Positions 33,791 through 59,023 of a stretch of 64,000 bases of DNA are shown in pieces. The notes below the pieces were generated by a model. The model had not been told where the DNA came from. It saw only the letters and a program-made list of their open reading frames with translations, and made no database searches. The stretch's first letter is position 1, and each line of letters opens with the position of its first letter. The stretch is taken from assembly GCA_973895155.1 (NCBI GenBank), contig OZ316895.1:5910687-5974686 (forward strand), read 5' to 3'. This DNA comes from Marsupella aquatica. Taxonomy: Eukaryota > Plantae > Marchantiophyta. The position numbers and the translations under genes were made by a program.

Positions 33791-34729
33791 AAAAATTTCC
33801 CCTTAGTTAAAAGAATTAAAAATATATATAAATAAAAATGCTTGCAGACCAAATTCCAAGGTCACTCACAAATCTGGAATTGGACTGCAGTTTGGGGAGT
33901 CTATGCAGCACTATCATTGATTGCTTCTTGTAGGTTATAATCATTCACTCTAGGACCATAAAATTTGATTCAATCCTAAGCAAATGCCCAAGTAAAGCAA
34001 TTGCATTGAGAGTGTGATGGTAATGATTCCAACTTGCAACCTTAGTGGAAATACGTCAACTTCAAGCTTGCAACCAAAACTCCATTAGATAGTAAAATTT
34101 CCATTGAGCCCTGTCATTCTTGAATCCGAGCGTAGAGAGATTTCATGAACACCACAAGATGAGAAAATAACTCATGGGTGGGAGATGAGGAAACTAAAGG
34201 AGTCTAAAGTGGCATTTGCCATCAAAGTTGCATTGAATAGACACCATAGCACAAGCCCACACTGGGTAGTGCACATGAGAAAATTTATGCAGCAGTCAGA
34301 AGGGGGTGGAACTACAATCATGAAGGCACATGATCGAGTCAGCCAGAAAGGGCCACCTAGATGCCTTTCTGTTGCAATCCTATTTGAGGGTACCCCCAAT
34401 ACAACAAATGCTTGTGATTTACTCCAACAATTTTGGAGAGGGTCACAAAATGGGATCAGTCAGAAAGGAGGGCCAATGTTTGGGGGGTTGACTAATAAAA
34501 AATTTTAGGAATCACGTGCGATCCAAAATATGTATTTTTGGCAGATTTTAACTAAATTTTTAAAAAGTGTAGGAGGCAAAAGAAGGTATTATAAACTCAT
34601 GTTTATAGAATATTCTTTAATATATACCCTTTATAAAGTAAAATAGGTTATTAATATTGAAAATAGAGAATATTCTTGGAATATTTTCTTTATAAAATAG
34701 GTCTATTTTTATTAGGCTAGGATCGCACG

Positions 34730-35059
34730 TGTCACACCATTATGAGTGGTAGTATAGGATATCGGACTATGTAGGTTTGAGGCTTTCATATGTGTGTTAT
34801 CTAAGTGGTTTAGGGTTAGTGTATGTTTGTGAGGGATAGTTATATATCTCTTTGTGTTGGCTCAAAGGTCTCATCTTTTGATGTTGAGCCTTTCGAGCAC
34901 AAACTCTAGCGGCTATGGTGTGGTTGTCTAGGTTGTGTGTACGTAATGTGGATTCCTTGAGGCGCAAGGTGCGTTTGGCTTGACATAAGTGTGTGATCGC
35001 GTCAGACAAGATTGTGTGTTTGATTGGCATCAATCGTTGCTCGATTATTCTTGAAGATT
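34730..35059 (+). repeat. Terminal repeat A1 (330 bp; contains TATA-like ttatatat at ~34840 and the self-primer at 34870-34884)
   Basis: Matches 43834-44163 with about 5 substitutions by eye, all transitions. Confidence 0.95.
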
Positions 35060-35074
35060 ACATCAAAAGATGAG
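35060..35074 (+). promoter_or_regulatory. Self-priming primer binding site (Tf1/sushi type)
   Basis: acatcaaaagatgag is the exact 15-nt reverse complement of ctcatcttttgatgt (34870-34884), which lies ~30 nt downstream of the TATA-like box. It starts immediately after repeat A ends. Confidence 0.85.
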
Positions 35075-35723
35075 CTTCAAACTCTGTTGTGCGGACTGTG
35101 CAGACAGAAGTTTGATTTCATTTTGGTTTTGTTGTTGACGATTCGTGGTAGCTCGGATCGGGTGTTGTTATTGAACGGATCGCTGGTATCTCGATCTATT
35201 GCAAGTTGGTGCGACGCTTGCGTAGTTCAAGTGAAGCTTCAAGTTGTTGTTGCTAAGTTGTGGTTTTGGAGTTGCGGTCTTCATCGATATGCGGTGTTGC
35301 ATCGTGGAGGATTGATTGTGTGATCGACAAGCGAATGTTGCTGTCGACAATTGTGTGTGAGACAGACGATGGTGTCTGGTCCTATTTTGTGAAGGGAAAG
35401 TAGTCGGATGTGCGACTCTTTGTGGTTTTGATTGAGGTGGTTCAATTGGGAGCCCGATAGTTGATTATGTTTACAATTTTTTGTAGGATGCAGTTCTGAT
35501 TTGCATCAAGTTCCTTGTTGATGGATAGTGCGTTTCTATGAAGGAAACGACGTTGAATGTTGGTGAATTGTGTTGGCAGCGCGCGACAAGATAAGGCACC
35601 GCGGAGAGGCAAGGCGGCTGTGACTTAGGGCACAGAGGAAACGACAAATACTGAATAGTGATTTTCCCGTCAATTGCGGCGTGTTTAGCGCATGACTTGA
35701 GCAAAGAGAGTTTTGGTGGGGAG

Positions 35724-36297
35724 GCACCCACAGCCCGCGGCCTGTGACCAATTCATCTTGGTTGTGTGAGTTGGCACCCACAGCCCACGGCCTGTGACCT
35801 CTTGCAGCTTGGCTAGCACCCACAGCCCACGGCCTATGGCCTCTCATAGTTTGGTTGTGTGGGCTAGCACCCACAGCCCACGGCCTGTGGCCTCTCATAG
35901 TTTGGTTGTGTGGGCTAGCACCCACAGCCCACGGCCTGTGGCCTCTCATAGTTTGGTTGTGTGGGTTGGCACCCACAGCCCACGGCCCGTGGCCTCTTGT
36001 AGTTTGGTTGCGTGGGTAGTCACCCACAGCCCACGGCTTGTGGCCGATTCATCTTGGTTGTGTGGGTTGGCACCCACAGCCCATGGTCTGTGGCCTCTTG
36101 TAGTTTGGTTGCGTGGGTAGTCACCCACAGCCCATGGCTTGTGGCCGATTCATCTTGGTTGTGTGGGTTGGCACCCACAGCCCACGGCCTGTGGCCTCTT
36201 GAAGTTTGGTTGCATGGGTAGTCACCCACAGCCCACGGCCTGTGGCTGATTCATCTTGTTTGTGTGGGTAGGTACCCACAGCCCACGGCCTGTGGCC
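35724..36297 (+). repeat. Tandem array in the element 5' leader, 12 copies of cacccacagcccacggcctgtggcc, period ~42-52 bp
   Basis: Core at ~35724, 35774, 35816, 35867, 35918, 35969, 36021, 36071, 36122, 36171, 36223 and 36273; internal inverted repeat ccacag/ctgtgg. Confidence 0.95.
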
Positions 36298-36315
36298 TAG
36301 GGTTTTGGAATCACG

Positions 36316-37998
36316 GAGTCTTCCAATAATGCAAAGCTACTTGGTGAACAACGGACTGGTTTCACTCAAAGTGGAGTGCAATTTCGGCCAACGACATTGC
36401 TAGCAGATACTAGTAGAGCTTCAGATAGTGATTCTGACGAGGGCTCTGTAGTCAACTCTCCTCATCATCAGGTAGTTGCACCATTGTTGTGGGATATGGA
36501 GGAGACGTATGGGTCCACTAAGGGCCCTAGAAGATACTCTGGTGCAGTTGGCACAATTGATTTGGATGATTTCATCCAAGAGTTTGATACGTGGTGTGAT
36601 ATGCAAACGATGCGTAACGCCACATTGTTTACACCTTTCATGGCATGGAAAGGGTTGTTTCAGCATTTGGAGGGTCCACCCATGGATGATTACCATGAGT
36701 TTCGGAAGACCCATTTGGATGATATTGAGATATGGAGACAACATTGGTCACCAAACTATGTGTCCATCACTTACGGCACAAGTGCGGTTTCTCAACCTAT
36801 TGCCCCGGCTGTTGCTTCTTCTAGTAGCACTAGCTAGAGTGGCACTCCACCAGTATCCACTGTTACTCCTACCAGTGCAATTGTGGGTGGGAGTGGAGTT
36901 GTGCCAACATTTAACCCTGTGGTGAAGTTCTTTGATGTGTTGAAGCAGAACTACCAGGGTGTGAGAACTGATAAGTTGAAGGGTCTTCAAGATTTTTAGC
37001 ACAAGACTGGAGAGAGTCTACGCGAGGCATATACTCGTATGCGAAGATTAATTATAGTCACCAAGGGAGTGACATAGGCCCAAGCAGTTCAATTTTGGTA
37101 TGCAATTTTGGATAGAAAGTTGCGGCGTAGAGTAAGAGATGCCACTCTATTGAGGGATTCAGATCCCACATTGGCTATTGTTTTTGCACTAGCCGAGCGC
37201 ATTGAGCTCAATATGGTGAATGAGAAGGTGGTGACTTCCGGATTTGTCAAGGAAGGCTCACCAAAGGTTGCATCTACACCCACACCGCAACCTATTGTAA
37301 GGAAGAGCCAGAGGGAGAAGCCTACAACACGGGAATCTACTAGTCAGAGACCTGTGCCCTCCTATGCTAGACAACAGTCAGGATGTTGGACTTGTGGTGG
37401 GGATCATGCACAAAGATATTGCCCGGATAATAGAGGGTCCGGAGGGGCATCTATGCCCGATCAACGATTATGTGATCATTGTGGAGTTTCTGGTCACACC
37501 AAAGATAGGTGTTTTGTACTCCATCCTGAACTACGACGGGGAGGATCGCGTACATATGATCAGGGAAGAGGAGGTAGAGGTGGTGGTCGTGGACGAGGGA
37601 TGCCACATGCAGGGAGACAACAAGGTGATGCTCCTGCCACTACCATAGATCCAAAAGATGCAAAGATTGCTCAATTGGAGCAACAACTAGCTGCCATGGC
37701 CAGTTCTCAGGTTAGACCTACTTCTGGTGATGGAACTTCTACATCTTATGGAGCTGACGGAGACTTGGCCACCATGGGATTCATGTGTGGCAGTGCCCAT
37801 GTTGACGCATTGGCAGCTTTGACTAGAGGAGCAACCAAAGTCCATGAGCCCCGAGGAGCAATGGTAGAGTTGGATCCTCAAAGGGGGGAGGCTCGTCAAC
37901 AAACAAAGCTTCCTCAATCGTTTACGTTGTTAGAGGCAGTTCACACTACCTCTATGAACCCGGTTAAGACAAATCCAAGTGTTGATAAGTCGGTATAA
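36316..37998 (+). pseudogene. gag: Gag of the DNMT-carrying element, two CCHC zinc knuckles, interrupted by three TAG codons
   Basis: One frame from ~36316 with TAG at 36835, 36997 and 37075. Contains RRYSGAVGTIDLDDFIQEFDTWC, KTGESLREAYTRMRRL, CWTCGGDHAQRYC, CDHCGVSGHTKDRC and an RGG-rich tract. Start codon uncertain. Confidence 0.85.
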
Positions 37999-40234
37999 GG
38001 GTGATGTTGCAGCAGGTCTAGCAAGTACCTTGTTGGGGGCGGCCACTAACATTGTGCGCACCCCATTATTTTCAGCAACAGATATATTGGCATTGGGAGT
38101 TAGTCCAGCTGAAGTGTTCAGATTGGTGGCCACATTATGTGAAGACACTCCAGTTGTTGCTTCTCGTGCAGACACAATGCATAAATCTGAAGTTGTGGAG
38201 TTGATTCCACCTATTGCTAGTGGTGAAACATGGGCAGCAGCAGCGGCGAGGTTGATGGAGTTACCAGCACGCCCTGCCTTTGAGAGAACTAGGTTTAAAC
38301 CTAGTGTGGTATCATTGGATAATCGGAGTGATATCTTTCGATTAATTGGGCCTTTTGGAGCAATATACCAGCCAGAACGAGTGTTATTGGATACTGGTGC
38401 TCAGCCCTTGATGTTGGGTAAGTCTGCGATACAAGGATTGGGATTGTGTCCAGATGATTTGGAGGAGTGTCCTTTTCCCATTCAGACTTCATTGGGAGGA
38501 CCTACACCCAAACAGCATATCACCAGACGAGCACTTGAACTTAGGATTCGAGAGGATCATCCAAAGGATAACTCACGGATCCAGGCTCAAGCTATTTTGA
38601 CTAAGGCTAAGTCGTATGATGTGTTAGTGGGATGTACAGTACTTTATCCTATGGGATTTATTCTTGATTTTTGGGATGAGTCGGTGTCGTATCGACCCGA
38701 TTGGCAATCTGGAGATGCTCGATTGAGCCAATTGCCAATGCGATTTAGTGGACCTGTGGGAGGTCCTAAATCTGCACCATTGTCTTTGGCAGCATTCAGT
38801 AGTTTGATTACTGGATCTGATGAGTTGATTGAAGGTAATGCACATGCAGCAGATGTTCCGGCAATGGAGGAGCCACGTGAGGAACACATGATGGGTGTAT
38901 TACCTGTTGATACCATTGTGGCACCAGTATGGGGTACTGGAGAGGCCTTGCAACAAAATGCGACCCAATTGATACATGATGCCTGGCGTCATGCTTTTAC
39001 ACCGGAGTCAGGAGCACAACAGTCTTTTGCAGATGGACCGGTGACCCTTTCACCATTGGATACTACTCCTATTGTGTGGCAGTATCTAGAGGAGGGTATT
39101 TGTTTGTTGGATTTATTTGGTGGGATTAGCACTGGATTGGCTGCTATTCTTCAAGCAGGAATTCCTGTGCGTCGTTACTTGTACGTGGAAAATGATGAGA
39201 TAACACGGAGGATCTCACTACGTCATGTAGCGATGATGGTGGAACGTTATCCACATTTGTTGCCAGTGGATGCCGTTCGTGGTTATCAGCATGCATTGCC
39301 TGCTGATATTTCATTATTGGGAGTGGATTATTTGGATCGTGTTGGCCCCATTGATTTGGTGATTGCGGGTTGGCCATGTCAGGGTCAATCTCGGGCTGGA
39401 ATTGGACATGGATTTCATGATCCAAGATCTGCATTATTTTGGGAGATGTTACGTGTGTTGCGCCATCTTCAGATGCATCAGACACATTCTCCTGCATACA
39501 TTTTGGAGAATGTCTCATTATTGGGTGATGATCATCATCGAATTGTTGCTAGTGTTCATCAGGTTCGATCTTGGATTGGACCTGCTGTGTTATTGGATGC
39601 TGCACGTGTGGGTTCTCGTGCACATCGTCCACGATTATGGTGGACTAACTTGTTACCATGTGAGGTCTTAAAGCGAGCATTTGATGGTGTACCTCGCTCA
39701 GCAACCTTAGTGATGGATAGTATTTTGGATCCAGGGCGTCGTGCACAAAGTGTTACCCAATCTGATCGAACCCCATTGGCAGTGGTGAATATTGTTGGGC
39801 ATCCGCGTTGTGCATTACCCACTTTTGTGAGCCATTCTGCTTCATACGCATTTCGAGCAGGTGGCCCTGGACTTGTGTGGGATACAGCTCTACAACGACT
39901 AGTAGAGCCTACCGCTAATGAGAGAGAGCGGGCTATGGGATTTTTGACTAGCACCACTGCAGTGGCCTCGGTGTCCGAGCATTCACGTTGTCAAGTCCTT
40001 GGTCAAGCCATGGATTTGAATTGCTTGACTTGGATTATCAGCTTGGGATTAGCTGAACAATTGCGAATGCGCACTTCTAATGTTACAGATCGTCCATTGG
40101 TGAGCTTGCGGCCTATCGAGACAGTAGCGGCCACAGCTGGGGGCGAGCAGATGCTTGATGGACCTATGGCAAGATTGGCCAAGGTAGAACATATTGTTGA
40201 GCAGAAGGAGGTTGCTCAAACTATTGATAAATAG
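37979..40234 (+). CDS. Pol N-terminal part: aspartic protease fused to a C5-cytosine DNA methyltransferase
   Basis: Protease VLLDTGAQ (~38381-38404) and YDVLVG, then a complete MTase domain. The ORF ends at one TAG that is in frame with the downstream RT ORF. Confidence 0.93.
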   Translation: MLISRYKGDVAAGLASTLLGAATNIVRTPLFSATDILALGVSPAEVFRLVATLCEDTPVVASRADTMHKSEVVELIPPIASGETWAAAAARLMELPARPAFERTRFKPSVVSLDNRSDIFRLIGPFGAIYQPERVLLDTGAQPLMLGKSAIQGLGLCPDDLEECPFPIQTSLGGPTPKQHITRRALELRIREDHPKDNSRIQAQAILTKAKSYDVLVGCTVLYPMGFILDFWDESVSYRPDWQSGDARLSQLPMRFSGPVGGPKSAPLSLAAFSSLITGSDELIEGNAHAADVPAMEEPREEHMMGVLPVDTIVAPVWGTGEALQQNATQLIHDAWRHAFTPESGAQQSFADGPVTLSPLDTTPIVWQYLEEGICLLDLFGGISTGLAAILQAGIPVRRYLYVENDEITRRISLRHVAMMVERYPHLLPVDAVRGYQHALPADISLLGVDYLDRVGPIDLVIAGWPCQGQSRAGIGHGFHDPRSALFWEMLRVLRHLQMHQTHSPAYILENVSLLGDDHHRIVASVHQVRSWIGPAVLLDAARVGSRAHRPRLWWTNLLPCEVLKRAFDGVPRSATLVMDSILDPGRRAQSVTQSDRTPLAVVNIVGHPRCALPTFVSHSASYAFRAGGPGLVWDTALQRLVEPTANERERAMGFLTSTTAVASVSEHSRCQVLGQAMDLNCLTWIISLGLAEQLRMRTSNVTDRPLVSLRPIETVAATAGGEQMLDGPMARLAKVEHIVEQKEVAQTIDK
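39095..40040 (+). other. DNMT3-like C5-methyltransferase catalytic domain (within Pol)
   Basis: Motifs in canonical order: I LDLFGGISTG, II RYLYVEND, III ADI, IV GPIDLVIAGWPCQGQS (catalytic PC), V LFWEMLRVL, VI YILENV, VII VLLDAARV, VIII AHRPRLWWTNL, IX ERERAMGF, X RCQVLGQAMDL. Confidence 0.93.
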
Positions 40235-40257
40235 CAACGAGCGACTGACTCTTCCAT

Positions 40258-40445
40258 CCATAGCCCACGGCTTGTGGCCTCTTCATCTCCAAAGGAAGAC
40301 GTCACAGTTTTGATGGAGAGTCACAGCCCACGGCTTGTGGCCTCTTCAACTCCAACGGAAGACGTCATAACTTTGAAGGAGAGTCATAGCCCGCGGCTTG
40401 TGACCTCTTCAACTCCAAAGGAAGATGTCACAGCTTTGATGGAGA
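40258..40445 (+). repeat. Three 60-bp in-frame repeats in the MTase-RT linker (SHSPRLVASSTPKEDVTxLME)
   Basis: ca(c/t)agccc(a/g)cggcttgtg(g/a)cctcttca at ~40259, 40322 and 40385; same core as the 5' leader array. Confidence 0.9.
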
Positions 40446-43270
40446 GTTGGGAACCACAGATTGGTCCTAAGTTGACCGGGAGGGAGAGACGTTGCATGCA
40501 TCAATTCTTGAAGAGTTATTGGAATTGTTTTGCATTTAGTATGAAGGATTTGGGGACATTGAAGGGTCTTGGTATTCAGATCGAATTGGCTAGTGATGCG
40601 CCAATCTTTCGACGACCGTATCGGTATAGTGACATGGAGAGGGCTTTGATCCAGAGTAGAACTCAGGATTTGTTGGAGGCTGGTTTGGTGGAGATCTCAT
40701 ACGGGGAGTATGCATCTGCCACAGTGATGCCAGCCAAGAAGGATGTGCATGGCAATTACACAGATAGGCGAATGTGTGGTGATTATCGACCTATTAATCG
40801 TCAGACAAAATCTGATCGATATGCCATGCCAACACCGGAGGAGATCTTTGATGCTGTGGGGCATGCAAAGATATTTAGTTCGTTGGACCTCAAGGCAGGG
40901 TACCATCAATTGCCAATTAGGCATTCGGATAGATCCAAAACAGCATTTTGGGGAATTGATTCTTATGGCAAAGATCGTTTGTATCAGTGGTTGTTCTTAC
41001 CATTTGGGTTGAAGAATGCACCAGCTGAATTCCAAAGAGTTATGGATCGAATTCTTGCAGGTTTGGATTTTGTGAGATGTTACATTGATGATATTTTGGT
41101 CTATTCTTCGACTGTGGAAGAACATCAAAGACACTTGCAGATTGTGTTGGAGAGATTGAGAGAACATGGATTGAAACTCCATCCTGGCAAATGTAAGTTC
41201 TTCCAAGACAAAATTGAGTATTTGGGCCACACTATCTACCCAGGAGGATTGGGTGTGCAAGAGACTAAGGTGGAGGCCATTACACAAATTCCTCGTCCTA
41301 CTGATGTGAGTAGAGTTCGTGCATTCTTGGGATTGGCGAGCTATTATAGACGGTATGTGAAAGGATTTAGCCAACTTGCTAAACCTTTAACTATACTCAC
41401 TAAGTTGGACCAGGAGTGGATTTGGGGTGACGACCAAGAGCATGCTTTCCAAGAATTGAAGGAAAGATTGGCGTCAACACCTATTTTGAGAAGACCCGTT
41501 TCGGGACGACCATTTCAACTACACACTGATTGGAGTGGAGTAGGACTTGGAGCAGTGCTGACTCAGAAGGATGATGAGGGGAATGAGTTTGTTGTGGCAT
41601 ATGCCAGTAGATCAAACAATTCAGCAGAGGCTAAGTATAGCTCGTATGAGGGAGAGTGTTTGGCAGCTATGTGGGCTGTGGCACATTTCCGTTGCTATTT
41701 GTTTGGTAATCCGTTCACCTTGATCACTGATCACCAGCCCCTCAAGTGGTTAATGGAGTCTAACAAGCTTACAGGAAAGCTTGCACGATGGGCATTGTTG
41801 TTACAAGAGTATGATTTCCAGGTTGTACATAGGCCTGGTAAAGTGAACTTGGATGCGGATGGGTTGAGCCGTAATCCATGTACCAATCAAGAGGATGAGA
41901 CTGGAGCTCGATGGCATGATGAGTCGGATAAGGAGAGTGTGCCAGGATGGCATGCATTTGCCTTTCTTTGTTGGGTTCCAACATATAGTGGATCTATGGA
42001 CTCTACTTCATTGGATGGGGTAGACGTTGAGTCTTCAGATATGGATGTTGATGAGGTAGTTTTTGGGCAGCAAGATATTCATAACGACAAAAGAGTGTTG
42101 GAATATTTGCGTGGTGGCTCCATTGTTGGCAATTGTGATGCTAAGGAGCGAGATAGGGTTCTACAACGAGCCAAGAGGTTTCGATGGGAAGGAAACCATC
42201 TTTTGAGGATACTACGTGATGGCAAGGTGTTGGTTGTACCAAAACCGTCACAACGAGTACGTTTGGTGCGACATGCGCATGAGGAGTTGGGTCACTTTGG
42301 TGTGAAACGCACATATAGCTTGTTGCAGACACAGTATTGGTGGTGTGGTATGCGCACTGAGGTCCAACAATTGATTGCTAAGTGTGTGGTATGTGATCGA
42401 GTGCGAGCATCGTTCAATGCTCCCACTCCCCAATTGCATCCGCTATCGATAATGGGTTTGGGATATCGATGGAGTTTGGACTTTGCTGGTCCATTACCTC
42501 TTACCCAACGTCATAATCGATATATTTTGGTTATGGTGGAGCACTTCTCCAAGTGGATTGAACTAGTGGCATTGCCAGATAAAGCTGGTGGAGGAGTGGC
42601 TATCACATTTTTGGATCGAGTACTCAGTCATTTTGGAGCACCAGCTGAGGTGTTGACTGATCAGGGTACGGAATTTCATGGAGAGTTTGAGGGTTTGTGT
42701 GAGAAAGCTCTTATTGATCATCGTACTACTTCTCGTGATCATCCTGAGGCAGATGGATTGGCAGAGAGAGTTGTACAAACCGTGAAGAGAGGATTGCATA
42801 AGTATGGCTTGCAGGTTGGTCATTTGGGAGATTGGGATCTCCAGCTACCTTGGTTAGCTATGGGTTACCGTTTTAGTCGACAAGCATCACTTGCATCCTT
42901 CTCACCTTATTTCTTGCTCTATGGTAGAGAGCCAGATTTGTCAGCGGCTATTCGTCGTGATGTGGCAATTGTTGTGGATTTGGACGATCCCGATGTTTGG
43001 GTCAAGGTGTGTTCAGAAAGGGCACGAGTTTTTGAGAGAGTCATGCCCATGGCCTTTGACAACCTTGCCATTGCCCAACATCGTGATACTTTGAGGTATG
43101 CCACTATTCGTGGAGGAGGTTATCGTGCGAGGATTCGACGGTTTCATCTTGGTGATTTTGTTTATTTGCAGCAAACAGCACCCACGACACTTGATGTGAC
43201 CGCAGGTCGGACAATCTTACGTGTGCGTGAAGTGTTGTCTTTCTGGTGTCCTAATGTTGGAAGGACGTAA
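40274..43270 (+). CDS. pol: Pol C-terminal part: reverse transcriptase, RNase H, DDE integrase
   Basis: RT: RMCGDYRPIN, SLDLKAGYHQ, LPFGLKNAPAEFQ, YIDD (41081-41092). RNase H: LHTDWSGVGLGAVL, YEGECLA, TDHQPL. Integrase: HEELGH...CVVC, LDFAGPLP, LTDQGTEF, GLAERVVQTVK. Confidence 0.97.
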   Translation: MASSSPKEDVTVLMESHSPRLVASSTPTEDVITLKESHSPRLVTSSTPKEDVTALMESWEPQIGPKLTGRERRCMHQFLKSYWNCFAFSMKDLGTLKGLGIQIELASDAPIFRRPYRYSDMERALIQSRTQDLLEAGLVEISYGEYASATVMPAKKDVHGNYTDRRMCGDYRPINRQTKSDRYAMPTPEEIFDAVGHAKIFSSLDLKAGYHQLPIRHSDRSKTAFWGIDSYGKDRLYQWLFLPFGLKNAPAEFQRVMDRILAGLDFVRCYIDDILVYSSTVEEHQRHLQIVLERLREHGLKLHPGKCKFFQDKIEYLGHTIYPGGLGVQETKVEAITQIPRPTDVSRVRAFLGLASYYRRYVKGFSQLAKPLTILTKLDQEWIWGDDQEHAFQELKERLASTPILRRPVSGRPFQLHTDWSGVGLGAVLTQKDDEGNEFVVAYASRSNNSAEAKYSSYEGECLAAMWAVAHFRCYLFGNPFTLITDHQPLKWLMESNKLTGKLARWALLLQEYDFQVVHRPGKVNLDADGLSRNPCTNQEDETGARWHDESDKESVPGWHAFAFLCWVPTYSGSMDSTSLDGVDVESSDMDVDEVVFGQQDIHNDKRVLEYLRGGSIVGNCDAKERDRVLQRAKRFRWEGNHLLRILRDGKVLVVPKPSQRVRLVRHAHEELGHFGVKRTYSLLQTQYWWCGMRTEVQQLIAKCVVCDRVRASFNAPTPQLHPLSIMGLGYRWSLDFAGPLPLTQRHNRYILVMVEHFSKWIELVALPDKAGGGVAITFLDRVLSHFGAPAEVLTDQGTEFHGEFEGLCEKALIDHRTTSRDHPEADGLAERVVQTVKRGLHKYGLQVGHLGDWDLQLPWLAMGYRFSRQASLASFSPYFLLYGREPDLSAAIRRDVAIVVDLDDPDVWVKVCSERARVFERVMPMAFDNLAIAQHRDTLRYATIRGGGYRARIRRFHLGDFVYLQQTAPTTLDVTAGRTILRVREVLSFWCPNVGRT

Positions 43271-43517
43271 TGGTATGGTTTGGAAGGATCATGTGCACAA
43301 TTGTGCACCATGTCATCTTTCAAACATTGACGATACAGTAGATCCAAGTTTGGCTCATGTTCGTGCCGGCTTGAAGTGTATGTTGTGTGGATCTGCTCAA
43401 GGAGCAGCCACTATGTTGATTTGTGATAAGTGTTCTAGAGGATGGCACATGTCGTGTTTGACACCACCATTAGAGGTGATTCCTAGTGGATCATGGTTGT
43501 GTCCTCAATGTCGGTGA
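43240..43517 (+). CDS. Integrase C-terminal extension with PHD finger (separated from Pol by a 1-nt frameshift near 43240)
   Basis: CMLC-x11-CDKC-x4-H-x2-C-LTPPLEVIPSGSWLCPQC is a canonical C4HC3 PHD finger. Confidence 0.9.
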
Positions 43518-43681: not shown

Positions 43682-43689
43682 AGGGGGGC
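43682..43689 (+). promoter_or_regulatory. Polypurine tract (aggggggc)
   Basis: G-run directly abutting the first base of repeat B1. Confidence 0.7.
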
Positions 43690-43833
43690 GATTGTGAGTT
43701 TTGGACATGTGTGGATAGGAGTTCCACTTGTACTCCATTCTCTTATGTTTGTGATGTTGATTGTGACTATATATGCTTAGATATGTGTGACAAACGATGT
43801 ATGTTGTGTAGCGATGTTTATGCGCACGACAGC
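43690..43833 (+). repeat. Repeat B1 (144 bp; inferred 5' part of U3)
   Basis: gattgtgagttttggac...gcgcacgacagc, repeated at 44164-44303. Confidence 0.95.
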
Positions 43834-44163
43834 TGTCACACCATTATGAGTGGTAGTATAGGATATCGGACTATGTAGGTTTGAGGCTTTCATATGTGTG
43901 TTATCTAAGTGGTTTAGGGTTAGTGTATGTTTGTGAGGGATAGTTATATATCTCTTTGTGTTGGCTCAAAGGTCTCATCTTTTGATGTTGAGCCTTTCGA
44001 GCACAAACTCTAGCGGCTATGGTGTGGCTATCTAGGTTGTGTGTACGTAACGTGGATTCCTTGAGGCGCAAGGTGCGTTTGGCTTGACATAAGTGTGTGA
44101 TCGCGTCAGACAAGATTGTGTGTTTGATTGGCATCAATCATTGTTCGATTATTCTTGAAGATT
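43834..44163 (+). repeat. Repeat A2 (330 bp)
   Basis: tgtcacaccattatgag...attcttgaagatt, a copy of 34730-35059. Confidence 0.95.
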
Positions 44164-44303
44164 GATTGTGAGTTTTGGACATGTGTGGATAGGAGTTCCA
44201 CTTATACTCCATTCTCTTATGTTTGTGATGTTGATTGTGACTATGCTTAGATATGTGTGACAAGCGATGTATGTTGTGTAGCGATGTTTATGCGCACGAC
44301 AGC
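44164..44303 (+). repeat. Repeat B2 (140 bp), right terminus of the element
   Basis: Copy of B1 with two transitions and a 4-bp (tata) deletion; ends cacgACA(gc). Confidence 0.93.
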
Positions 44304-47300
44304 CGTGGTACCCCAAAATATACACTTAGTTAACCCCCTGAGGGCCAATGGAACACAACCCTAACTAAGTGTAGTTTTTACTATACTAAAAGGGTATGTA
44401 CTTACAAGGAAATGAAATCTGATGGGAAATGCTACTATTGCCCTCAAAACAACATTAATACACTTAAATGCGTAAGCCATTTTTCACTTTTTACCGTTTT
44501 GGCAAAAGTAATGGGAATTTTCCCTCTACCCAATGCAAATCAAGACTGTATGTCTTTATGAGAACTCCCATGAAAGTTGTGGAAGCCTATCAGTTGCGGA
44601 ACTTGACTACCTTAACACTTAGCTCCGGCGGCGCTGACTCCACGCCGAGCTCCCCTATGGTCCAGGCCCGGAACAACCATCTAGGGGGGACTTGTGGGCA
44701 ATGGGGCGTGGCACTGGCAAAGGCAAGGCGCTAAGCTGATGATATACACTAAGGACTTAGATTAGCTGAGGGCTAGTCCGGTCAAGGGGAAAGGGCTAGA
44801 CTCAAGGTCGACCATCCGGACCTCGGACGGACTTTGAGTTCAGAGGGCTTGATTGAGTTTAGGGTTTAGGGTTTAGAGCTCCTCTTGGGCCTAAGGCAAA
44901 TGGAGTTTACTCCATGGGCAACAAACGCTTGGGGCATGAGTTACGGCCCGATCCAGGTTTGGCCGATCCGGGGTCCCGGGCGACAACGGGATCTGAGAGC
45001 TTAGGCATGAGCATCATTCGGCCTAATCACAACTGTCTAAGGCATTCCGTTTACAGACGTCTAACTAGAAAGTTATGGGCGTAGCCAATTGGTGGCGCGC
45101 CCAGAAGTGCGTTGGGGTCCAAATGGGGGACCAAAGTAGGTCCGGGGGTGGCAGGTCTCCAAAAACATATATGAGGGGAGTGGTGTCTCCCTAGGGGCTA
45201 AGGGCGAGCCGAAGTCATGAGCCGCGACGGTCGCAACACCAAGGGAAAACGTCAAACAGAAACGGGTATAACTTCCTAGCGGGAAGTCCGTTGGAGAACT
45301 TCTTGAGTGCGTTGGAAATCTCTCGAGGAGGGCTACGTCCTCCTGAGCTCAGATGGGTCTAGGGGTGCCATGGATTATCGGGGTTTGTTGGGGCTATCTC
45401 GCCCGCTTGCCAAATCCTGCTGAAATAGCAGTCAAACCACGTTCAGTCTCCAAAGGGAGCTTGCGTTGGGGAGGCAAGGCCAAGTATGCATGGAGGTTGA
45501 GTTCAAGGGTACTTGGCCCCTAAGCCGTCAGTGGGGTGAGAACCGGGAGTTGGTTGCCTGAGTCGGGGCCATTCTGGTCCGACGTGTTGGGACAAGCTTG
45601 GGACGAGCTTTAGGACAAGCTACGCTATTTGGGCCATGAGCATGTCTTGGGGGCAGGGTGGTCAGTTGGTGATGGATAGGTACAAGGGGGAACCCGGGCT
45701 GCACCCAAAGAGGGGCCGTTCAGGACGAACAGCGGGTGTCGGCTTTGGTTCCCGCTTATGGCAACGGGATGACCGATCGTTGACCTACTTACCAAATGTC
45801 TATTGAGCTTGAGTTAGGATGCTATACTTGGGGAAATCTAGATCCTGTCGGGTTACTTACTGAGGTACTTGGTTGCTTGTGCAGACTGTGAGAATCGTTG
45901 AGTAACAGTCATGTTAGGGAGCAAGTGCGGCTTCGTATGGGAGGGGTCGCGATCGGTGCAAGGGGCACCAAGTTGCTTGCTCGAGGAGTTTCGTGGGGGC
46001 TTTCGGGCACCAGGGGCACTTAGGCGTGGGTGCTGGGATTGGTGAGGGCGTTGGGTGGCAAGGTCCACCACTCTATCTTTTGTTCCCTTAAGGAAGTAGT
46101 GTGGGCTCAACACTTAACCTGTAACCTTAATTACGGTCCATTAGCGTTAGGCATGACTATTGTGCAAACAATTTGGACTATAGCCTATGAATGTGATATC
46201 TGGTAGAAATTTAGGATTCTGCAAAACTGCAATGAAGTGCTAACAATGAGTTACTTATCAACCTTTTTGCTTGTGACCATCATCCCCTGGAATTTGGGGA
46301 TGATGGTTGAAAGGCAGCTGGGCTGTTGATTAGCTTGTGATGATTTTTTGTTAATTCCCTGGAATTTGGGGATGAGACTTGAAAGGCAGCTGGGCTTTGA
46401 GCCTGATGTGGCTCTTCGTGCTTCATTGGGGGTGACAGCAGGGAAAGAGAGGAGACATATAATACTGTTGTTGGGAAAGCTTTGCCCCAAAAATCTTTTC
46501 AAAGCCTAAAGTCTGGTGTTGACCTGTAAAGTATTTCTCCAGATGAAAAGTGAGTTCTTATAAAGCTACCGGACAGTGGGAATGAGCCGGGTATACAACC
46601 CTAACACAAAGCATTTCTTAGTTTTGTCAAGAAAATCAATGGCCTTGCCTTGACTTGACAAGGATTGAGCCACCGTATGTATCCTAAGGCAAAAGGGATG
46701 GCTGTCTGAATTTGTTAGCAATTGTGGGAACTGAAACTGAAATCCCACTGAAATTTAAACAAATGTTGCTGATCTGTTGGTGTCATAAATGCATCGTACA
46801 GCTTTTTCAAAGCATGTTCGTGACATTACAGACACTTTGTAAAGTCTGTTTTGTGACATTACGGACAGTGTTAGCAGATATGGAGGTTAGACCATACCCC
46901 TCATGGGGCCGGTCAATGCTGCCTCATCAGATTTGTAAAATCAAGTTACGGGATCAACCATGATTTCTCTGTGGCCAAGTTCTGAGACCCGCTTTTAGAG
47001 AAAAACCCAAGTAATCTTTTCGTGGCCAATATGAACTTCCCAAGTGACTGAAATTGAACTGCGGTAGATGCTCTATAAGCTCTTATGATTTTCTTCTTGA
47101 CGGAGGTACTTGAGATGCTTGGTCCTACACCTAGGTGTTAACGTCTCCTGGAGTGATTCATCTTCTCATCAAACGTACTGAAGCACTGCTAGAAATATGT
47201 TAAGTTCAAATCTGGAAAAACGAAATTCTTCAGTGGAGAGTGAGGCAACTGAAGAATTTCGTGGCTGAGCACTCATTTGCCTTGTATTAAGATCCAAGAA

Positions 47301-54220: not shown

Positions 54221-57200
54221 TGTCACACCATTCTAGGCAGTGTTAGAGTGTATCATACTATCTAGATCTGTATGTTTAGTATTGTGCTATATGAGCCGAT
54301 AAGGTTCTGTTAGGTTTGTGTGAGAAGGTAGTTCTCTCTTGTGAGACATCAAAAGGTTATCTTTCGATGTTGAGCCTTGGAGAGAAGAGCTCGTGTTGTG
54401 GCTATGGTGGTCAGAGCTCCTTCTATGTAGCATGGATTCCTTGAGTGCAAGGTGCGTTGGCTTGACATATGTGCGTGATCGGAATGGACGGGATCGAGTA
54501 CGTATTGTTGGCGTTGATCGTGGTTTGATTCTATTGAGATTACATCAAAAGATCGTTCAAACTCTGCTACCGTACGGACTGTGCGGACAAAGCTTCGGTT
54601 TCATTTGATCATGTCGTTGATGGTTCACGGTAGATCAAATTGATTGGAGCTATTGCTGTTGTTTGGATCCGTGGTAGCTCGGATCATGGAGTGGATTGTC
54701 GCTGGTATTTCAATTTGCTATAGTTGGTGTTGTCCGATCTGAGTTGTTGTCCAATCGAAGCATCATTGGACAGATCAAAGCATCATCAGACAAATTGGGA
54801 GTTCTGTGAGCACTTGTTTGGTGACTATGAGTTGTAGATTGCTCTCATCGTGTGCTCCGCTATGTGCGATGTGTTGCTGACTGTTTTGTGAAGGAATCGG
54901 GGCTGTTTGCTGCAAGTTGATGCTCTGTTTTGTGAATGAAAGAGGCCCCAAACGTTGCATTTTTTACATCCAATGGCTGCTGTGCGGAAATGACTGAACC
55001 TCGTATTTTTGCAAAGGAAGTAGCATCGGAAGTTGCTACTTTTTCACTCGATGACTGAATTTTTGCGTAGCCGTTGTGTGCAGATCCGAATGACCTTTAT
55101 GTGAGGGAAACGATGGTTGTTTAGCCGAATGTTGTTGATCCGAGTCATCTATCCGGCGTAGCAAAGCGTTGCAGGCTTGGCGTTTAGAGGCTTCGAGGCA
55201 ACTTGCGGTAACTTGGGACTAGGGGCGTGAGGGCGGAGCAGGAGCGGGCGGGCCAGCAAGCTTGCTAGTACATGAGGAGAATTACAAGTGTTGTCATTTT
55301 GGAGTGGCAGATTTGGGTGCAAAATGACAAGTGAGAGGTCACCCATCCCAAAGTTATTCCTCATCTCATGAGCTTAACTAGCTAGTTCTTATGTGGTGCA
55401 TTGTACATGCTTCCTTTCATACTTGATGTCCAAGGAATGAGGCCCTTAGTAAGGGTTTTATGCACTTTTGAATTCATCTAGCTACTCTGTTTGAACTCAT
55501 TTGTAATGGATTCTTAAATATTTGACTCAGGATTCTTGAGGCCTATTATGAAGGTCTTACATTGAACTATATGAACATTATTTTCAGGTATTTTTTATTG
55601 ATGGGTGTGGAGAGTTGTGGTAAATCCGCTTCTTGTTGTTGGATCCTCTACACACATGCTTCTTGCCCATGTGCCATGTTAGTGTTGTGTGGGCGTTTGA
55701 TTTCATAGGAGTGATTTGGGTTTGCAACCGAACACTCTAGCTGTGTTGTGTTTTTTTCTCATGGTGATGTTGGAGTGATGCCTAACACACCATGGTGAGT
55801 GCTTTTGGTACTGGCAAGGATAGATTGCCCAATTAGGGTTAGCACATAGATTAGATTGATGACTATAATTTTGTGATTGGTCATCACTGATTCTTCTGGT
55901 GCTTCGAGGCTACCCGATGGACGGTGAACGGGTTTCACTCGGAGTGGGGTGCAATTTTGGCTAGCGACATTGGTAGCAATTGGCAATGCAGCTTCAGACA
56001 ATGATTATGATGAGGACTCAGTGACCAATTCTCCTTGTCATCAGGTGGTTGCACCTTTGTTGTGGGATATGAAAAAGATGTATGGAGCTACAAAGGGCCC
56101 ACGACAATATTCTGGTGCAATTGGCATGATTGATCTAGATGACTTCATCCAAGAGTTTGATACATGGTGCGATATGCAGACATTGCGTATTTCAACAATT
56201 GGAGGGGCCATCCATGGATGACTACCATGAGTTTTGGAAGACTCATTTGGTTGAGATTGAGGCATGGACGCAGCATTGGTCACCTAATTTTGTGTCCATC
56301 ACCTATGGCACTAGTGCGGCTGCCCAACCCATTGCCACAACTGCTTCTTCTTCTAGGAGCACTAGCTAGAGTGGCACACCATCACTAGTACCACTCCAGT
56401 AGCATCCACCGCTACTCCTACCGGTGTGATTGTGGCAGGGATTGGAGCTGCGCCAACATTTAACCCGGTGGTGGAGTTCTTTGAGGTACTAAAACAAAAC
56501 TATCAGGGTATGAGGACTGATAAGTTGAAGGGCCTCTAGGAGTTTTAGCGCAAGACTGGAGAGAGTCTACGTGAGGCATACAAGCGTATGCAAAGATTGA
56601 TCACTATCACCAAGGGAGTGACATAGACCAAGATAGTCCAATTTTGATATGCAATTTTGGATAGAGAATTGCGACGCATAGTGAGAGATCTCACTCTAGC
56701 TACTTAGGGATGCAAATCTTACATTGACAATTGTTTTTGCACTTTCTGAGTGCATTGAGCTCAATATGGTGAAGGAGGAAGTGATGACTTCTGAATTTTC
56801 CAAGGAAGCACCAAATGCTGCATCTACACCCACATCACAGCCTACTGCACGTAAGAGCCAGAGGAAGAAGCCCACTACATGGGAATCTACCAGTCAAAGA
56901 TCTGTGTCATCCTATGTTGGATAGCAGTCAGGATGTTGGACCTGTGATGAGGATCATGCATAGTGATATTGCCCTGATCATAGAGGGCCAAGAGGGGCCT
57001 CAACACCTGATTAGCGGCAGTGTGATCATTGTGAAACTTCTAGACACACCAAGGATAGGTATTTTTCACTCCATCCTGGGTTACGGAGAGGAGGATAGCG
57101 CACACATAATCAAGGAAGAGGAGGCAGAGGTGGTGGTCGTGGCTGAGGTATGCCACATGCACGGAAATAGGGAGGTGACATTGCTCCTACTATGACCACA

Positions 57201-59023
57201 GATCCTAAGGACGCTTTGATTAAGAAATTAGACTGTATGAAGAATAACTTGGTTTTGTGTGAAAATATGAAAATAAAGATTTGTGGTAACAAGTAGATTT
57301 TGATTTCTACCAAAATAAAATTGTAAGTATTGATAATTTTCAAGAATTATCATAGTGAATCTAGAATTTATCATAGTAAAAAAGTAAATTTTGATAACTT
57401 CTAAAATCTATCATAGTAAATAGTAATTTCTTAAATTTACCATAGTAAAAGGTAAATTGTGGTAATTTCTAGAATTTACCATGGTAAAAAATTAAGTTCT
57501 AAAATCTGCCATGGTAAAAAAATAAAATCTAATAAGTTCTAGTAATTTCTAGTATCTTCTAGGATACTCTTGTAAAGGGACCAGCATGGTCTGGCTCCAA
57601 CTATAAATAAGAGGAAGATTGACTCATCCAGGAGAGTTCATTTTTCTAGCATTTTAAGCGCATGAGTGCAAAGATAGATAGTGCATAGAGTGCATATTGT
57701 GTACATTAGATTTGCATTGAAGTAATGCTTGAACATTGGTTCTATGACTAAACAGAATGGCTATGTCATCGGTTTCTATGGTTGAAGGGTTCTAAGTTTC
57801 TTAATTCTTGGTCATGTAAGGCCTTGTTATCACTCGAGTATCTTAAAGATGGAGTTTTGAATCTGGCAAGATCGGCTATGCCGCCAATACCATAGATATA
57901 ATGTCTACAAATCTATGATCAAGTAGGGACGGCTCTGTCACTGAACCTCTCTTGGATAGAAAGCATATAGAAAGTATGAATATCAATATTGATTTGGATG
58001 AAAGTCCGTCATTCTAAGGATTTGAATTTGTATTCTACGGTGAGCATTAAGTTGATAGTAAAGAGGAAGGTAGGTATTAGGCAGGTTTTTACATAGAAGT
58101 TTGAGAAAGAAGAATACACTGCAATTATCACATCGTCAGATCCATTAATACTCTATAGATGCACAAATGAAGATGTTGGTGTTTTCATAATAGTGTAATA
58201 GATAAAAGATCATAGCCAAAAGTTGAAAGAAGTACGTAAAAAAGATTATCACTTGGAGAAAATATTTGTGGAGTGTGAATCTGGCCCAGACTACTATGGT
58301 GTTACTATCAATAACTGGAATAAATCACACATATCTCTTGGTACCAAAAGTGCTTAGGGATCCTTGCAAAAAAGGGTACGCCCTTTCCAGCCAGTTTATT
58401 TGAGGAAAATTGCAAGAAGCACACGGAAACCCAATGAACTTGAGAAATAGTCGGGAGGGGACAAGGCTCTCAAGGAAATTGGTTCTAAGCATGAGATCTC
58501 TTATAAGTGGTGAATAGCATAATTAGCACATGCAACCAGATACCCAAAGTGTTCTTGAGAGCTTACTATTCCCATGACAACCCTAAGTTGCTCAATTGGA
58601 GCAACAACTAGCTGCTATGGCTAATTCTCAGGTGAGACCTACTTTTGGGGATGGGGCGTCTACATCATATGGAGCTTCCACATCTTATGGGGCTAATGGA
58701 GATCTTGCCACCATGGTATTCATGTGTGGCACTACACACATTGATGCATCAGCAGCTTTGACGCGTGGGGCATCAAAAGCCCTTGAACCCCAAGTAGCAG
58801 TTGTTGAGTTGGATCCTTAGAGAGGGGATGCTCGGCGTCAGACAAAGCTTTCCTAGTCTTTTACATTGTCAAAGATAGTTCAAATTGTCTCTATGAACCC
58901 GATTAGGACAAACCCTAGTGTGGGTAAGTTGGCAAAATCACATGATGTTGTAGCAGGGATGATAGGTACCTTGTTGAGGACGGTGCACCCCATTATTTTC
59001 AGCGACAAATATGTTGACATTGG
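54221..59023 (+). mobile_element. Older, degenerate, 3'-truncated relative of the DNMT-carrying retrotransposon (A repeat + leader + gag)
   Basis: Starts tgtcacacca; A-like repeat ends gagatt|acatcaaaagat at ~54541. Gag homology (APLLWDM...GPRQYSGAIG.IDLDDFIQEFDTWCDMQT) runs from ~55900, resumes at 58585 and stops at ~59023, before the protease. Confidence 0.9.
57216..58579. mobile_element. ~1.36-kb insertion inside the degenerate gag, probable solo LTR
   Basis: Interrupts collinearity with copy 1 (DPKDA|K.AQLEQQ). Flanked by acgct/accct (5-bp TSD with 1 mismatch); ends TGACA; contains ctataaata and catagtaaa repeats. The left end lacks a canonical TG. Confidence 0.6.

Follow-up and report, generated by a model that had tools for sequence, protein, structure and literature searches.

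The window, by which I mean the whole 64,000-nucleotide stretch of Marsupella aquatica DNA that was analysed, carries a retroelement whose parts follow one another in the order repeat A1, open reading frames, polypurine tract, repeat B1, the dinucleotide GC, repeat A2 and repeat B2. Its repeats, coding features and repeat borders lie as follows:

34730..35059, plus strand: repeat A1, 330 bp, the left end of the element, starting with TG
36301..37998, plus strand: disrupted gag-like region lacking a Pfam match, in which two CCHC-like motifs were made out by eye
37958..40234, plus strand: open frame with a weak aspartyl protease match (E 0.053) and a C5 DNA methyltransferase, with an in-frame stop at its end
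40235..43270, plus strand: reverse transcriptase, RNase H, integrase zinc finger and integrase core (D749, D809 and E844 of the frame; DD(34)E)
43377..43511, plus strand: PHD finger, in a separate frame here and in frame with the integrase in relatives
43691..43831, plus strand: repeat B1, 141 bp, ending with CA
43785..43792, plus strand: 8-mer that is the inverse of the A start, not conserved
43828..43837, no strand assigned: palindromic B1/A2 junction GACA-GC-TGTC, predicted integrase attachment and cleavage site, conserved in related loci and the place to which copy ends map
43834..44163, plus strand: repeat A2
44163..44165, plus strand: A2/B2 seam, predicted two-LTR circle junction, with one extra G (44164)
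44165..44301, plus strand: repeat B2, the right end of the element, ending with CA

The coding region is disrupted by stops and frameshifts; its domains stand in the Ty3/Gypsy order of protease, reverse transcriptase (RT), RNase H (RH) and integrase, with the protease match a weak one, the integrase is a DDE enzyme with a zinc finger, and the C5 methyltransferase (PF00145, E 2e-11) lies within pol. There is no chromodomain after the integrase, the PHD finger being found in its place, and the element's 42 reading frames of at least 70 aa contain no Pfam family of tyrosine recombinases. When compared with solved structures, the integrase is closest to those of Ty3 and foamy virus (the best match being Ty3 Gag-Pol, E 9.6e-20), and its alignments to both show a one-residue gap at the D-E spacing, which is 34 residues in 73 of the 77 proteins with the motif (window 42659-42766; proteins P0001-P0120) and 35 in the remaining 4, namely Cordylochernes and other distant matches. 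All identifiable homologues are Gypsy-like, the nearest named ones belonging to liverworts, Klebsormidium and Closterium, which would make a bryophyte the likely host, and others occurring in many metagenomes. In a quick RT-RNase H tree (59 rows, midpoint root, composed without DIRS sequences and with L075 and L102 omitted for short coverage) the window element, all 14 of the junction-bearing loci included and the DNMT-bearing Klebsormidium nitens Gypsy protein P0041 fall into one 42-row clade (SH-aLRT 100), across which the DDE triad is intact. A 51-bp tandem array in the leader (35657-36298) and a 63-bp in-frame triple repeat before the RT (40259-40447) share a common core motif.

The repeats tell a different story from the proteins. 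A1 and A2 are 98.5% identical (5 substitutions), 2 substitutions and one 4-base indel separate B1 from B2, and the element as a whole has the TG...CA termini of Ty3/Gypsy elements; the two whole identical LTRs that such elements carry around the coding region are not found, the arrangement being A1...B1-GC-A2-B2, and what is present is the split direct A-B-A-B pattern of DIRS elements such as PAT and Ngaro. The element is therefore Gypsy by its proteins, by its ends it is not a canonical LTR element, and it is not DIRS. The extra G at the A2/B2 seam is the same base as the last one before B1. A second, older relative lies at 54221-59023 (69-77% alike, with the same A start); it has a primer site after A with one mismatch to its arm, is broken at about 57215-58587 and ends near 59023 without a B.

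At the border between B1 and A2 the first-pass annotation had drawn attention to a perfect 10-bp palindrome, GACAGCTGTC (GACA-GC-TGTC), with halves equal to the element termini, and both points hold: the palindrome occupies 43828-43837, and the element starts with TGTC at 34730 and finishes with GACA at 44301. As a bare motif it is unremarkable and at chance level, and by itself it says little, since the window contains 78 perfect 10-base palindromes. What goes beyond chance is its position at the B1/A2 border together with its recurrence in relatives, the exact 10-mer being found 8 times where 0.57 occurrences would be expected under uniform base use, in the 596 kb of loci L066-L151, a set that contains repeat samplings of the same insertions. 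The same annotation had noted an 8-mer further upstream as the inverse of the A start; the word is there, but at 43785-43792, two bases before the noted start of 43787, and it has a second copy at 44255, arises in 0.23% of B shuffles and is not conserved. Because its best match is just 4-6 of 8 bases in 21 of 21 testable relatives, it is probably incidental, and I have ruled it out as a second attachment half-site. Just left of the insertion, bases 34724-34729 are the same six as those preceding the last three of B (43823-43828), probably by chance, and relatives' flanks show no such likeness.

Relatives were found by an alignment-based scan of metagenome contigs (a single-protein scan of metagenome contigs gave no matches), and a scan of viral contigs gave 65 loci, mostly RT-only, from which L001-L004 alone were used, as outgroup controls. 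Among the 44 loci that reach the end of pol, which I sorted by a classification of my own, 22 have the junction, 13 stop at the CA of B and pass into flanking sequence, and the remaining 6 and 3 are too short and disrupted, respectively; the 22 junction loci represent some 18 separate insertions or contigs (L081=L129, L088=L143, L140=L141=L144). CA is kept in all 22, TG in 19 and the spacer GC in 16, and 5 of the 6 non-GC spacers are C-to-T or G-to-A changes. Two loci have changes in both arms and are palindromic all the same (GGCA-GC-TGCC in L103 and TACA-GC-TGTA in L127), L125 has one mismatch, and L081, L141 and L144 show the complete A...B-A-B arrangement. A CA-NN-TG palindrome extended by at least 2 pairs was sought within 1.5 kb downstream of the match in the outgroup and found in 0 of the 7 loci examined. 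The palindrome thus keeps its position in relatives whose RT-RH identity is 41-76%, as its earlier description as an integrase site would have it, and the idea that the spacer is copied from the flank was ruled out because GC is kept across families. Elements on contigs L146-L151 occur in genomes titled bacterial and are likely misbinned eukaryotic DNA.

The ends of other copies point to the same place, falling on the CA and the TG of the palindrome, so that both tests which the first-pass annotation set for its reading, conservation of the palindrome among relatives and the mapping of copy ends to it, came out in its favour. In four public runs from two studies, with contig depth not taken as copy number, 36, 22, 32 and 38 contigs have loose ends behind 43831, and since the sequences beyond agree at just 0.37-0.39 these flanks are unrelated. 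Among the matches listed (24 of 454 loose-end rows), three contigs pass from other sequence into the element at 43834, some run through the junction into another A subfamily, and some join the end of A (44163) to 43691 without the extra G. The right-flank consensus of the four runs shows a CA at +6/+7, which was dropped as a candidate signal, being absent in relatives' flanks. On these comparisons the palindrome is a conserved head-to-head join of the element's two insertion ends, and it is very likely the integrase site, at which I infer the cleavage itself.

The boundaries of the cDNA are suggested by four further features, of which the polypurine tract and the self-priming site had escaped the first-pass annotation:

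34841..34847, plus strand: TATA-like box, 29 bases upstream of the predicted start of the RNA
34870..34884, plus strand: predicted RNA 5' end and self-primer arm, a perfect 15-base complement of 35060-35074
35060..35074, plus strand: predicted primer-binding site of the self-priming type, directly after A1, with no tRNA-type TGG start
43682..43690, plus strand: polypurine tract, a G run and two bases, directly before B1

The primer site is complementary to sequence in A1, with the RNA start placed from the TATA spacing alone. In 20,000 shuffles of A1 the longest complement match was 13 bases as against the 15 observed, and the 15-base duplex appears in both the MFE and the centroid folds (z -3.2). 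Duplexes of 12-19 bp and of differing sequence occur in L122, L067, L146, L071, L102, L103, L127 and L148, and the downstream arm begins at the end of A where that end is placed independently (the window, the L088-type family, and L146 compared with L147), the A end of L071, L102, L103, L127 and L148 being without such placement. A TATA-like box stands at the same spacing (-26 to -31) in L067, L146 and L122; at the expected place it is absent in 4 of 8 rows (L071, L102, L127, L148), and none is seen there by eye in the window's second copy. In L148 the self-primer arm overlaps a TATA-like word. A perfect arm of at least 9 bases is missing from 5 of the 10 left ends, which may be put down to decay. 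In several families a local hairpin overlaps the predicted primer arm (L082 1832-1854, L122 9810-9832, L067 8827-8854, L146 7228-7255) and could compete with priming. On the other side of the coding region, the G run adjoins B in 23 of 23 rows of the L088-type family, and distant families have a G-rich tract 53-191 bases before the junction. A primer site behind the 5' repeat and a polypurine tract ahead of the 3' repeats are placed as in Ty3/Gypsy elements. Because the polypurine tract before B1 and the primer site after A1 would bound the cDNA, its LTR is likely B-GC-A, a repeat that has the palindrome at its centre and no TG...CA at its ends.

I consider it probable, from these layouts, that the ends of this Gypsy cDNA are joined into a two-LTR circle and that the DD(34)E integrase cuts the internal palindrome and inserts the circle in permuted form. 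The RNA would start near 34870, and, in the manner of Tf1, its first 15 bases would serve at 35060 as primer of the minus strand; ordinary LTR-type reverse transcription would then yield a linear (B-GC-A)-internal-(B-GC-A), bounded by the polypurine tract and the primer site, and end-to-end ligation of this molecule would create the A/B seam found here as A2/B2. At the primer-side palindrome the integrase would cut each strand behind its CA, producing CA ends with a 3'-OH as well as 5'-GC overhangs, and insertion with a 4-base stagger would give the product A-internal-B-GC-A-B, while one-LTR circles, or the cutting of both sites, would give A-internal-B, a form unable to copy itself. The 34-residue D-E spacing may be tied to the cutting of an unbroken junction. 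Going one step further, I lean towards the view that an old green-lineage Gypsy clade shifted its attachment site to mid-LTR, so that the circle would be obligatory for replicable copies and the integrase would act as a site-specific endonuclease on an unbroken palindrome.

The seams, the short copies and the orientation of the permutation all bear on this two-LTR circle. In 7 of 10 independent cases the A/B seam runs flush from the primer-side A end to the PPT-side B start, so that seam variation is modest, and the other 3 (the window, L075 and L081) retain one or two bases from the polypurine-tract side, once with filler, as is expected of end joining. In one case (L099 3244-3880) B-GC-A and the primer site are followed by an inverted A leading back to its own start, as if a plus strand had folded back through the primer site. 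Copies of the form A-internal-B with 4-bp duplications exist (L096, L122 and L135) and could fit one-LTR circles, double cutting, later B1-B2 recombination or assembly collapse. The main result that speaks against the model concerns the mirror form A-B-GC-A-internal-B, to be expected if either palindrome of a circle were cut at random: none of 9 independent left ends has it. With 3 of the 9 proven to be A...B-A-B the test is weak, but it points against a random choice, and integrase site choice would accordingly need a bias. Contigs that run from B-GC-A through the primer site into the internal region (L067, L071, L102, L103, L127, L148) were rejected as evidence of circles because they are likely assembly collapses of A1 and A2, and the closed contig L146 was set aside on the same ground.

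The target site gives a further view of the insertion, with two short features at the element's borders:

34726..34729, plus strand: left copy of the likely 4-bp target duplication
44302..44305, plus strand: aberrant right copy of the duplication, two bases equal to the junction spacer followed by two duplicated bases

The insertion flanks match their first description, and the empty site predicted from them was found, the left flank standing directly before 44304 in 32, 9, 28 and 11 contigs of the four runs (agreement 0.78-0.82; the host of the insertion is itself a high-copy repeat). Because these empty-site copies show the sequence before insertion, the insertion can be said to have added the element and four right-hand bases, of which the first two equal the spacer and the last two repeat the left flank. 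The first-pass annotation had wavered between a 5-bp duplication with one base lost and a shorter cg/cgt one; relatives have 4 bp, not 5 or 2, a length within the 4-6 bp of Ty3/Gypsy elements, and the 5-bp version with one base lost still fits the window copy. Among five independent relatives with both ends, L081, L141 and L096 match at 4 of 4 bases and L122 and L135 at 3 of 4, 5 bp never being a full match, so a duplication of 5 or 2 bp finds no support as a family rule in relatives, the 5-bp length staying admissible for the window's own family. The window copy itself matches at 2 of 4 bases. Its right flank is fitted equally well by a 4-base stagger with a kept 5'-GC overhang, in which repair would have retained the overhang as the additional GC found at 44302-44303, and by a 5-bp duplication minus one base; I hold the first to be somewhat the likelier and the second to be a serious contender. 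Of 24 other right ends not one starts with GC, so the kept overhang, known from this one case only, would be at best a rare event. The insertion lies about 35 bases from the end of the high-copy host repeat (34700-34729, 44304-44342); many contigs leave that repeat at 44338 or 44342, and another high-copy repeat begins at 44591-44592.

The alternative that survives best, which I nevertheless think unlikely, is a templated circle like that of PAT and Ngaro combined with a DDE integrase, in which the RNA would span A1 to B2 and a B1-GC-A2 splint would rebuild the junction for cutting; the palindrome would still be the cut site, and the A2/B2 seam would be inherited instead of newly made. The repeat order is indeed the same as in PAT and Ngaro, the polypurine tract before B1 could prime the splint, and such a scheme would yield the observed permutation alone (mirror forms 0 of 9) and seams that are flush, as they are in 7 of 10. 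However, it offers no account of a primer site that lies exactly at the A1 end and covaries in sequence between families, or of a seam exactly between the primer-side A end and the PPT-side B start, and it leaves the polypurine-tract remnants at 3 of 10 seams unaccounted for.

Quite improbable, in my estimation, is a route with no free circle, in which the integrase would cut the palindromes on linear cDNA and the B piece would be joined within the complex, or two cDNAs would be joined head to tail. It would explain why there are many single-B right ends (13 of 44 loci) and why the mirror form is absent, but only with an extra joining step for which I found no precedent, whereas a circle reaches the same product by one ligation. 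Taken alone, A2-B2 resembles a normal 468-bp TG...CA LTR, and one could imagine an ordinary Gypsy element with an A+B LTR in which B was lost from the left LTR and an additional B arose by rearrangement, the palindrome being a by-product of the meeting of two LTR ends; this is very improbable, given that layout and spacer recur in many families with 41-76% RT-RH identity, that the polypurine tract precedes B1 and not A2, that the primer site follows A alone (the window's second copy included), that the layout is reported in K. nitens and that A+B left ends number 0 of 9. Least credible of all is a crossover site for the tyrosine recombinase of another element, suggested by the DIRS-type layout and by the six bases shared between the left flank and B, since no recombinase is encoded in the element's 42 frames of at least 70 aa, the DDE triad is intact across the clade, the duplications are of 4 bp and other left flanks are unlike B.

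Among known systems, the split-repeat layout itself is already on record. In the Fig. 4c legend of de Mendoza et al. (2018; PMC5890265) the repeats of KnitGypsy-Dnmt3 from K. nitens are given as DIRS-like and its domains as Gypsy, so that this element resembles the one in the window in combining a Gypsy pol and a C5 methyltransferase with DIRS-like repeats. The accessible text of that paper mentions no junction palindrome, primer site, polypurine tract, target duplication or mechanism, and the available portions of two other sources (bioRxiv 10.64898/2026.05.21.726589; PMC8557442) contain a mere mention of Gypsy-DNMT3 or PHD domains. I found no published mechanism for a split-repeat Gypsy layout in a literature search that took in few subscription journals. 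Surveys that require two whole LTRs, such as those using the LTR-FINDER criteria as outlined in part of PMC6317226, likely miss such elements.

According to the excerpted text of PMC7192593, PAT, Ngaro and VIPER have split direct repeats in the order A1...B1-A2-B2, the same as in the window element, and a circular intermediate has been proposed for them; the window element differs in having a DDE integrase, a protease, a polypurine tract, a primer site and 4-bp duplications and in having no tyrosine recombinase. In Tf1, Tj1 and Tcn1, as in the window element, the primer site behind the 5' repeat can pair with a stretch of that repeat, which is the anatomy of Tf1-type self-priming (excerpts of PMC4600332 and PMC6317226), but these three are surveyed there as two-whole-LTR elements, with Tcn1 belonging to a chromovirus clade. 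The window element departs from all three in its split repeats and its PHD finger.

HIV-1 integrase, for its part, is said to cleave palindromic 2-LTR junctions. The cleavage chemistry proposed here has a precedent in foamy virus, whose integrase opens a palindromic junction by cutting each strand just behind CA, so that 5' overhangs of 2 bases result (as described in part of PMC1180852). The likeness to both viruses thus lies in a DDE integrase making after-CA cuts on both strands of a palindrome with 2-base 5' overhangs, and the difference is that their palindrome arises at the end-to-end seam, linear ends also being a substrate, whereas the window element carries it within the LTR itself and its predicted linear ends have no TG...CA. 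Two-LTR circles are commonly regarded as dead ends for DDE retroelements, and drug-withdrawal observations reportedly hint against that view in retroviruses. In vitro hints against it are also given in part of PMC1180852. If the reading favoured here is true, circles would be a normal insertion route in this clade and not a dead end, the question of circle integration would become directly testable with a defined 10-bp substrate, and a repeat layout that was recorded but left unexplained in 2018 would have its explanation.
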